Assembly: GCF_003334405.1 (NCBI RefSeq)
Contig: NZ_QOWM01000008.1
Strand: one strand, 5' to 3'
Source of the DNA: Escherichia coli
GTDB taxonomy: Bacteria > Pseudomonadota > Gammaproteobacteria > Enterobacterales > Enterobacteriaceae
DNA length: 64,000 nt
Under the pieces are notes generated by a model. It saw nothing but the letters and a program-made list of their open reading frames with translations, ran no database searches and had not been told where the DNA came from. This document shows, piece by piece, positions 37,768 to 37,941 of this stretch (its first letter is position 1; each line of letters opens with the position of its first letter). The position numbers were made by a program, and so were the translations under genes.

Positions 37768-37941
37768 ATGACGACACTTATTTATTTGCAAATTCCTGTC
37801 CCTGAACCGATTCCTGGCGATCCTGTTCCAGTGCCCGATCCGATCCCTCGCCCGCAACCCATGCCTGACCCACCACCCGATGAAGAACCGATTAAATTGT
37901 CGCATCGTGAGCGTAGATCTGCGAGGATACGCGCCTGCTAA
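37768..37941 (+). CDS. Possible small proline-rich protein (57 aa), unannotated candidate
   Basis: ATG preceded by GAGGGA; encodes MTTLIYLQIPVPEPIPGDPVPVPDPIPRPQPMPDPPPDEEPIKLSHRERRSARIRAC; below the ORF-track length cut-off. Confidence 0.3.
   Translation: MTTLIYLQIPVPEPIPGDPVPVPDPIPRPQPMPDPPPDEEPIKLSHRERRSARIRAC

Follow-up and report, generated by a model that had tools for sequence, protein, structure and literature searches.

The small-protein gene ynaL of Escherichia coli: a conserved acidic proline-rich core followed by the promoter of dbpA

Results

The fnrS-ynaL-dbpA locus

The analysis was performed on a window of 64,000 nt of Escherichia coli DNA, in which a 57-codon proline-rich open reading frame lies on the plus strand between the small RNA gene fnrS and dbpA (Table 1). 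The ATG-initiated frame with its coordinates, as given in the original prediction, was confirmed by the sequence and by the list of open reading frames, and the GAGGGA Shine-Dalgarno (SD) sequence was found in front of it. The location just downstream of the FnrS terminator and immediately upstream of dbpA was also correct, the measured gaps being 61 nt (from the fnrS end to the ynaL ATG) and 29 nt, respectively. The FnrS terminator hairpin occupied positions 37683-37702 and was followed by a T-run. The 5' end of fnrS coincided with a published E. coli transcription start site (TSS), 1407153 in NC_000913.2 (Kim et al. 2012, PMC3415461), which corresponds to position 37589 of the window.

Table 1. 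Features of the fnrS-ynaL-dbpA region (positions in the window)
Feature	Position	Strand	Basis or remark
fnrS sRNA gene	37589..37706	+	Rfam RF01796, 134.8 bits, full length
Candidate ynaL -10 element TCTACCCTTTA	37729..37739	+	sigma-S extended -10 likeness, 2 mismatches
Shine-Dalgarno GAGGGA of ynaL	37759-37764	+	direct reading; 3 nt before ATG
ynaL CDS	37768..37941	+	ATG, 57 codons and TAA stop; ORF list, RefSeq annotation, Pfam PF23677
Acidic alternating X-Pro core, codons 16-40 (PGDPVPVPDPIPRPQPMPDPPPDEE)	37813..37887	+	entropy, dN/dS, outgroup homology
dbpA promoter, -50 to +1	37887..37937	+	published TSS; overlaps ynaL codons 40-57
Conserved block 1	37888-37905	+	invariant at all codon positions
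Codons 47-49 (dbpA promoter spacer)	37906..37914	+	near-neutral drift, recurrent in-frame stops
Conserved block 2	37915-37935	+	invariant at all codon positions
Extended -10 TGcGAGGAT of dbpA	37920-37928	+	8 nt before TSS
Discriminator ACGCGCCT of the dbpA promoter	37929-37936	+	8 nt, GC-rich
dbpA TSS	G37937	+	Kim et al. 2012
dbpA	37971..39344	+	GTG start 29 nt past ynaL stop; ORF list and annotation

The frame was translated as MTTLIYLQIPVPEPIPGDPVPVPDPIPRPQPMPDPPPDEEPIKLSHRERRSARIRAC (57 aa). Proline accounted for 16 of the 57 residues, the core carried a charge of -6 and the C-terminal tail a charge of +5, in agreement with the predicted PxP-rich peptide with a basic C-terminus. At the local base composition, the chance of an open frame of 57 codons was ~0.05 per frame. 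The ynaL frame was considered to be beyond chance, because the frame, its SD and its start were kept in 67 species and the dN/dS value was 0.06.

The frame is the known E. coli small-protein gene ynaL (b4743). The sequence of MG1655 was compared with the window around the frame, and no mismatches were recorded over 3001 nt; the RefSeq record of MG1655 contains the CDS 1409308..1409481 named ynaL (b4743, YP_009518775.1). The frame had been described as unlisted, which was wrong, since a YnaL feature ('proline-rich small protein YnaL' or 'protein YnaL') lay under the match in all 25 sampled E. coli rows. These rows were a sample from 5393 complete E. coli genomes holding the region, and the CDS coordinates were checked in one record. 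The former of the two names is the one given by NCBI to the identical 57-aa product, located in the same place between fnrS and dbpA. The Pfam family PF23677 (YnaL; 'Protein YnaL-like') matched with an E-value of 2.2e-40 and 136.8 bits over model positions 1-57 of 57.

A YnaL sequence identical to that encoded in the window, placed between fnrS and dbpA, was reported by VanOrsdel 2018 (PMC6001520). In that work the chromosomally SPA-tagged YnaL was seen by immunoblot, the gene was noted as positive in an earlier tetracycline ribosome-profiling screen, and a possible operon of ynaL and dbpA was remarked. Among the searchable papers, the gene was named in VanOrsdel 2018 only, and the literature search found no function for YnaL. 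That paper does not mention that ynaL is under mosaic selection, that it overlaps the dbpA promoter or that it is ancestrally linked to fnrS. The proposal that the frame encodes a small protein was therefore right: an SPA-tag immunoblot and ribosome profiling have both detected this known gene, ynaL, and strong purifying selection acts on its core at the protein level. As a discovery, ynaL is nothing new, having been annotated, named and detected since 2018.

Conservation and mosaic selection

The comparative set consisted of 80 loci of different species, which were fetched with DbpA as the anchor and hence without bias toward ynaL. A proline-rich frame was located directly 5' of dbpA in 68 of the 80 loci, and 67 of these 68 were usable for codon analysis. 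The genera with this arrangement included Escherichia, Citrobacter, Salmonella, Enterobacter, Klebsiella and Raoultella, and also Leclercia, Lelliottia, Kosakonia, Superficieibacter and Pseudocitrobacter. All 67 species kept the ATG codon of ynaL, and in each of them a purine-rich run resembling an SD lies 4-8 nt before it. In 57 species this run agrees with the GGAGG core in five bases (GGAGG or AGGAG), and in the other 10 the purine-rich match is shorter (for instance GGAG, GAGGG or AAGG), the window itself having GAGGG. The length of the product varied from 44 to 64 aa. Conservation of the reading frame in relatives, proposed earlier as a check on the gene, was thus observed, both in the ATG and SD-like run of the 67 species and in the dN/dS value of the core.

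Of 61 species, 50 had the plus frame open. A possible antisense gene (a 78-aa ORF, 37723..37959) was considered and rejected: the antisense frames were open in just 11-13 of the 61 species, and the period-3 pattern of variation fitted the plus frame.

Selection was measured by per-codon entropies and by Nei-Gojobori dN/dS over all pairs. In codons 16-40, the entropy was near 0 at codon positions 1 and 2 and reached 0.9-1.9 bits at position 3. For codons 18-40 (DPVPVPDPIPRPQPMPDPPPDEE), a dS of 1.42, a dN of 0.089 and a dN/dS of 0.06 were obtained. Codons 2-151 of dbpA, which served as the comparison gene, gave a dS of 1.28 and a dN/dS of 0.045. The value of the ynaL core was indistinguishable from that of dbpA. 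Protein-level purifying selection is limited to this central acidic X-Pro stretch of ~25 residues. The N-terminal 12-20 residues were variable in both sequence and length, and in-frame indels of X-Pro units were found within E. coli and within Salmonella.

A different pattern was recorded in the last third of the gene. Codons 41-46 (CCG ATT AAA TTG TCG CAT) and codons 50-56 (AGA TCT GCG AGG ATA CGC GCC) were invariant at all three codon positions, with a dS of 0.03, and codons 41-57 are therefore conserved as DNA and not as protein. Between the two invariant blocks, codons 47-49 varied at all three positions with a dN/dS of ~0.7, and TAG, TAA or TGA occupied codon 47 or 48 in 12 of the 67 species, Enterobacter cloacae being an example with a stop at codon 47. 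The DNA coding for RSARIRAC behind these stops was unchanged. The basic tail of YnaL is dispensable in many species and is cut off by stops in about one fifth of them. The view that the sequence is just an open frame in the 5' region of dbpA consequently holds in part, and only for the last third (codons 41-57).

The dbpA promoter within the 3' end of ynaL

The location of the dbpA promoter was approached through genera in which ynaL and dbpA are not adjacent. The counterpart of block 2 in Cedecea, Dryocola, Atlantibacter and Siccibacter was TCTGCTAGAAT, TAGACT or TAGCAT, followed by (A/G)CGCG, and the hexamer ATGACC was found 17 nt upstream of it in the genera without the adjacency. In Cedecea, the promoter scan called ATGACC-17-TAGAAT with an upstream TG at the site homologous to the dbpA promoter. 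In Atlantibacter, a terminator ends ~75 nt before dbpA, and the dbpA promoter has to lie within these ~75 nt because the terminator is just upstream. From the alignment of the outgroup promoters, the TSS of dbpA was predicted near positions 37935-37937 of the window, and this was then matched by a published TSS.

This TSS (1407501 in NC_000913.2) was supported by 126 reads and gave dbpA a 34-nt 5' UTR (Kim et al. 2012, PMC3415461, supplement file 2). The upstream 51-mer of that record, ACCGATTAAATTGTCGCATCGTGAGCGTAGATCTGCGAGGATACGCGCCTG, was identical to positions 37887-37937 of the window, with G37937 as +1. Hence, dbpA has a mapped start site preceded by a -10 element, as in a sigma-70 promoter, and positions -50 to +1 of this promoter are ynaL codons 40-57. 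In E. coli, the main mapped start of dbpA transcription sits 4 nt before the ynaL stop, and the dbpA mRNAs that begin there do not contain the ynaL ribosome-binding site (RBS) for that reason. The region of codons 47-49, which forms the spacer of the promoter, contained no indels among the alignment rows of the ynaL clade.

A GC-rich discriminator of 8 nt is the geometry of rrnB P1, and it would suit the growth-rate control of a ribosome-assembly factor. Some 40 nt of the promoter, among them an ATC-N9-GAT dyad, are unusually completely invariant between genera, and this might, although it is rather unlikely, mark a site for a putative regulator.

Other explanations of the two blocks were tried. 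No fit to sigma-54, sigma-E, sigma-32 or sigma-28 promoters was seen by eye against their consensus sequences, and an apparent -12 'TGC' was not conserved. No conserved RNA structure accounting for blocks 1 and 2 was found by RNAalifold in 25 species. A pairing partner for block 2 within dbpA was rejected as well, as codons 5-160 of that gene contained no window of suppressed synonymous variation.

The candidate promoter of ynaL

A -10-like element was located 28-31 nt before the ynaL ATG in most of 70 loci. It was compared with KCTAYRCTTAA, the consensus of the extended -10 for sigma-S (Weber 2005, quoted in PMC5650638). Relative to this quoted consensus, 0-2 mismatches were counted in 56 of the 70 loci, versus 4.6% of shuffled 70-mers; the match was perfect in 10 species, and E. 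coli had 2 mismatches. Three distant loci (L083, L084 and L087) kept both the element and its distance to the ATG, though the distance to fnrS varied.

A primary TSS of Salmonella SL1344 (P894) has an upstream sequence ending in ...GCGTCTACCCTTTAAGAG (PMC3293720 supplement); for the same dRNA-seq TSS, an upstream sequence ending in ...TTTTTTTTGCCTGTAGACTATCTGCGTCTACCCTTTAAGAG, just 3' of the -10 element, is also given (PMC3293720). Its read support was low, 7 and 3 (PMC3293720 supplement). In 2012, this TSS was assigned to dbpA as a 237-nt 5' UTR (PMC3293720). Kim et al. 2012 (PMC3415461) list no E. coli TSS between fnrS and dbpA, and the experimental support for the ynaL promoter comes from Salmonella only.

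Because the -10 element was conserved and the Salmonella TSS lay just downstream of it, we infer that ynaL is transcribed from a start site of its own, at a sigma-S-like promoter ~25 nt before the SD. The assignment of the same TSS to a 237-nt leader of dbpA makes it probable that ynaL and dbpA are co-transcribed to some extent. With such partial co-transcription, ynaL could secondarily also affect dbpA in cis in the Escherichia clade.

The consensus promoter scan of E. coli positions 37450-38100 returned no sigma-70-like site. Both promoters, that of ynaL and that of dbpA, are non-consensus and were recognised through conservation and published TSS data.

Ancestral genome context of ynaL

In the dbpA-adjacent clade, all 24 aligned species had fnrS directly 5' of ynaL, and fnrS lay immediately 5' of ynaL in every genome examined in which upstream DNA was present. 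In five outgroup loci (L073, L076, L081, L083 and L084), it lay at most 70-108 nt before the ynaL ATG. Atlantibacter (L076), Cedecea colo (L081) and Dryocola (L073) had a YnaL homologue right after fnrS, followed by a hairpin and a convergent ttcA, with dbpA at least 2 kb further. More generally, dbpA in the outgroup genera was ~2 kb or more from ynaL or was absent from the same stretch. The order fnrS, ynaL, ttcA(-) was observed in these three loci and also in L083, L084, L085 and L086. Examples of the outgroup YnaL are MITTLSDPVPTDPVPVPDPIPRPQPITEPTPDPGPILAAPPQR and MTFHRGMFMSDPTPSDPVPNPDPFPKPQPIPDPPVDPDPKPIIDPPPHM.

When 1.84 billion representative proteins were searched with a profile, just 33 clusters were returned, which are of two types, dbpA-adjacent (...PDPPPDEEPIKLSH...) and ancestral (...PDPPxDPDPKPIIDPPPH.). 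On the contigs encoding four of the ancestral-type proteins, the order was zntB (CorA family), fnrS, ynaL, ttcA(-) wherever the flanks were present. The X-Pro core was common to dbpA-adjacent YnaL and the outgroup homologues, and the protein homology of the two types ended near residue 41, precisely where block 1 starts. In Kluyvera, the proline-rich part was lost, and fnrS, the promoter blocks and dbpA were kept within 120 nt.

It was concluded that ynaL predates its adjacency to dbpA. We propose that a rearrangement may have set dbpA and its promoter beside ynaL, that the ynaL frame would then have read on into promoter DNA, gaining a new basic tail, and that this tail would later have been trimmed in many lineages. 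Such a rearrangement is the simplest reading of present-day gene orders, from which it was deduced rather than from a rooted phylogeny.

The shape of the product

The AlphaFold2 model, built from a 30-sequence alignment, contained no helix or strand; the pLDDT was ~90 over residues 21-40 and the pTM was 0.22. This output describes an extended proline-rich rod and not a fold. No PDB relatives of YnaL were found at E <= 1. Neither a signal-peptide-like nor a membrane-spanning segment was seen by eye, and the N-terminus was short and not conserved.

Discussion

Taken together, the data show ynaL to be a real, translated and conserved gene of Enterobacteriaceae, and they make it very probable that it is independently promoted and not a leader peptide of dbpA. 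The gene itself was already known; what is new here is the comparative evidence that its selection is mosaic, that its 3' end overlaps the dbpA promoter and that its link to fnrS is ancestral. YnaL would be an unfolded, extended, acidic peptide of the polyproline-II type, which may act in trans by binding a putative partner rather than in cis as a dbpA leader, and it may be made from a stationary-phase-type candidate promoter beside the anaerobically induced fnrS. The trans-acting reading draws on the selection pattern and synteny only.

Since the dbpA promoter makes up the last third of ynaL and ynaL has a sigma-S-like candidate promoter of its own, both transcription and translation of ynaL would pass across the dbpA promoter. 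It was considered, as a rather unlikely additional effect, that induction of ynaL in stationary phase could occlude the dbpA promoter by transcriptional interference. If true, such occlusion would help to shut down the ribosome-assembly helicase DbpA when growth stops, and it fits the reported DbpA abundance, which is higher in exponential than in stationary phase (PMC13393375).

The original prediction had offered a leader peptide as one possible function, and a cis-acting upstream ORF controlling dbpA, for instance through translational coupling or through exposure of the weak RBS at its GTG on a joint transcript, was weighed accordingly. The two genes are co-oriented and 14-63 nt apart, with no terminator between them; dbpA starts with GTG behind a weak SD of the GAGA type; and the Salmonella TSS 5' of ynaL, given to dbpA as a 237-nt leader, implies co-transcription (PMC3293720). 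However, this distance of 14-63 nt between the ynaL stop and the start of dbpA is itself variable, and the stop position is not conserved, as 12 of the 67 species terminate 57-63 nt upstream of dbpA. An equally weak RBS was found in outgroup dbpA without ynaL. No conserved RNA structure was detected by RNAalifold in 25 species (-4.3 kcal/mol, 0 covarying pairs), and the E. coli fold had a z-score of -1.0. Further, dbpA has its own TSS, the main one in E. coli (126 reads) lying almost at the end of ynaL, and Kluyvera keeps the promoter and dbpA although it lacks the proline-rich part. Finally, the ancestral ynaL follows fnrS and is not beside dbpA, facing instead a hairpin and the convergent ttcA, with dbpA at least ~2 kb away or absent; for this reason the leader-peptide idea is not supported, and we regard it as improbable.

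The functional output could also be a translation stall and not the peptide. PPP and D-P-P are EF-P-dependent stall motifs, and the PPP and other XPP motifs might make translation of ynaL depend on EF-P or on prolyl-tRNA, so that the stall serves as a sensor. PPP was present in 63 of the 67 species and PDPPPD in 60, the outgroup forms retained DPP or PPP motifs, and selection for proline codons would likewise yield a low dN and a high dS. Against this, PSP stands in place of PPP in three species and PPQ in one, the core residues other than proline (D, I/V, R/K, Q and M) were conserved as strongly as the prolines, the outgroups have no downstream gene to regulate, and no structure for attenuation was found by RNAalifold or by the z-score. 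A stall sensor was thus judged very improbable.

That ynaL is a non-functional by-product, an open frame of the fnrS-dbpA spacer caught up in pervasive translation, might be argued from the ~0.05 chance of a 57-codon frame, from the last third being conserved only as promoter DNA and from the lack of a reported phenotype in the literature search, but the substitution pattern (dN/dS 0.06 at a dS of 1.4 in codons 18-40 of 67 species) refutes it for practical purposes, in line with the conserved ATG and the SD-like run before it, the homologues kept in a different genomic context in outgroups and the detected protein (VanOrsdel 2018, PMC6001520).

Thus, ynaL as a conserved gene in its own right was retained as the preferred reading. 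It presents a compact case of dual constraint, in which the first two-thirds are selected as protein, the last third is kept as promoter DNA for the gene that follows, and the positions free to vary repeatedly become stop codons. There is also a practical consequence: a tag or a deletion at the 3' end of ynaL, as in the SPA-tag strain, also disrupts the dbpA promoter. Phenotypes of such 3' alleles may therefore be dbpA effects, and a dbpA control is needed. Functional work on YnaL should focus on the ~25-residue acidic X-Pro core and on the conserved neighbour fnrS, and the physiology to consider is likely that of the stationary phase or of anaerobic growth rather than ribosome assembly.

Comparison with known systems

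The regulatory leaders hisL and trpL (attenuators), SecM and TnaC resemble ynaL in being short co-oriented upstream ORFs enriched in one residue and having a variable N-terminus. Unlike them, ynaL has no terminator or anti-terminator structure, its C-terminus is not conserved as protein and its downstream gene is not conserved. As regards attenuation, the terminator scan was negative and no alternative structures or terminator were found between ynaL and dbpA; conserved linkage to a regulated gene was likewise missing, the outgroups having ttcA instead of dbpA. As regards an arrest peptide of the SecM or TnaC type, the last 17 codons were constrained as DNA (dS 0.03) and earlier stops occurred in 12 of the 67 species.

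In shape, YnaL is similar to the proline-rich spacer of TonB (PF16031 TonB_N; NF008084), both being alternating X-Pro, charged and predicted to form an extended rod. The TonB profiles matched YnaL weakly, with E-values of 2.9e-4 (NCBIfam) and 0.75 (Pfam). YnaL differs from TonB in lacking both a membrane anchor and the TonB domain at the C-terminus, and in being purely acidic, whereas TonB has a pair of EP and KP segments. Homology to TonB was rejected, as the match reached 20.8 bits against a cut-off of 315 bits and covered the proline-rich segment only; the likeness is compositional.

In arrangement, ynaL is comparable to the dual-function small RNAs SgrS/SgrT and Spot 42/SpfP, as in all of them a small-protein gene is tightly and anciently linked to a small RNA gene. 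It is unlike them in that its frame begins 61 nt past the end of the FnrS terminator (37768 versus 37706), outside the small RNA, and has its own conserved -10 element and, in Salmonella, a mapped TSS.

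Conservation of the dbpA promoter

About 40 positions of the dbpA promoter (37887-37935, comprising the blocks 37888-37905 and 37915-37935) were identical across some 15 genera, which exceeds the needs of -35 and -10 recognition alone. The -10 element was the non-consensus GAGGAT, separated from TTGTCG by 20 nt, and an ATC-N9-GAT dyad was found within the promoter. Taken together, the invariance, the non-consensus -10 element, the 20-nt distance and the dyad suggested either a candidate regulator site or special promoter kinetics.

Natural variation of ynaL and its surroundings

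The proline-rich part of ynaL was deleted in the loci L071, L072, L075, L077 and L080 (Kluyvera and a relative), where the stretch upstream of dbpA, counted from the end of fnrS, was about 120 nt. The sole ynaL remnant in these loci was the promoter-derived '...LSHPAARSARIRAC*'. They represented a natural ynaL knockout in which both fnrS and dbpA were intact.

Within species, 11-15 residues of the X-Pro repeat were gained or lost in frame, as was observed for the E. coli variants P0001, P0088 and P0112 and the locus L004, and for P0053 of Salmonella. Such changes, in which the frame was kept, suggested that the repeat had undergone replication slippage.

An ATG frame of 47 codons was also found to run through the FnrS sequence. 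In one metagenomic or genomic record, the gene caller had joined the FnrS-derived frame in frame to the YnaL homologue, resulting in a 106-aa product (P0134). The fusion was most likely an annotation artefact; the record showed that fnrS and ynaL were adjacent there as well.

In E. coli MS 69-1 (NZ_CP146675.1, 2813038-2814348), the genome match H24 was broken into two pieces, and an IS200C-family transposase was annotated under it alongside ynaL and dbpA. Hence, an element of this family was located somewhere inside the fnrS-ynaL-dbpA stretch of this strain.

Other features of the window

The annotated YnaN frame was located directly upstream of the zinc transporter gene zntB, for which it may serve as a leader ORF. 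Elsewhere in the window, the Rfam matches over the gathering score were collected together with the other features (Table).

Table. Positions of the sequence features in the window
Feature	Position	Strand	Basis
McaS	34116-34211	-	Rfam, over gathering score
Protein YnaN, 15-codon ORF (gene label ydaN)	36449-36496 (450-497 of locus L001)		RefSeq annotation
47-codon ATG frame through FnrS	37597-37740		
ATC-N9-GAT dyad, dbpA promoter	37904-37918		
RalA	42016-42194	+	Rfam, over gathering score
sok	52295-52470	+	Rfam, over gathering score
STnc100	55259-55445	+	Rfam, over gathering score

In K-12, ttcA is presumably followed by the Rac prophage, which would fit the RalA match.
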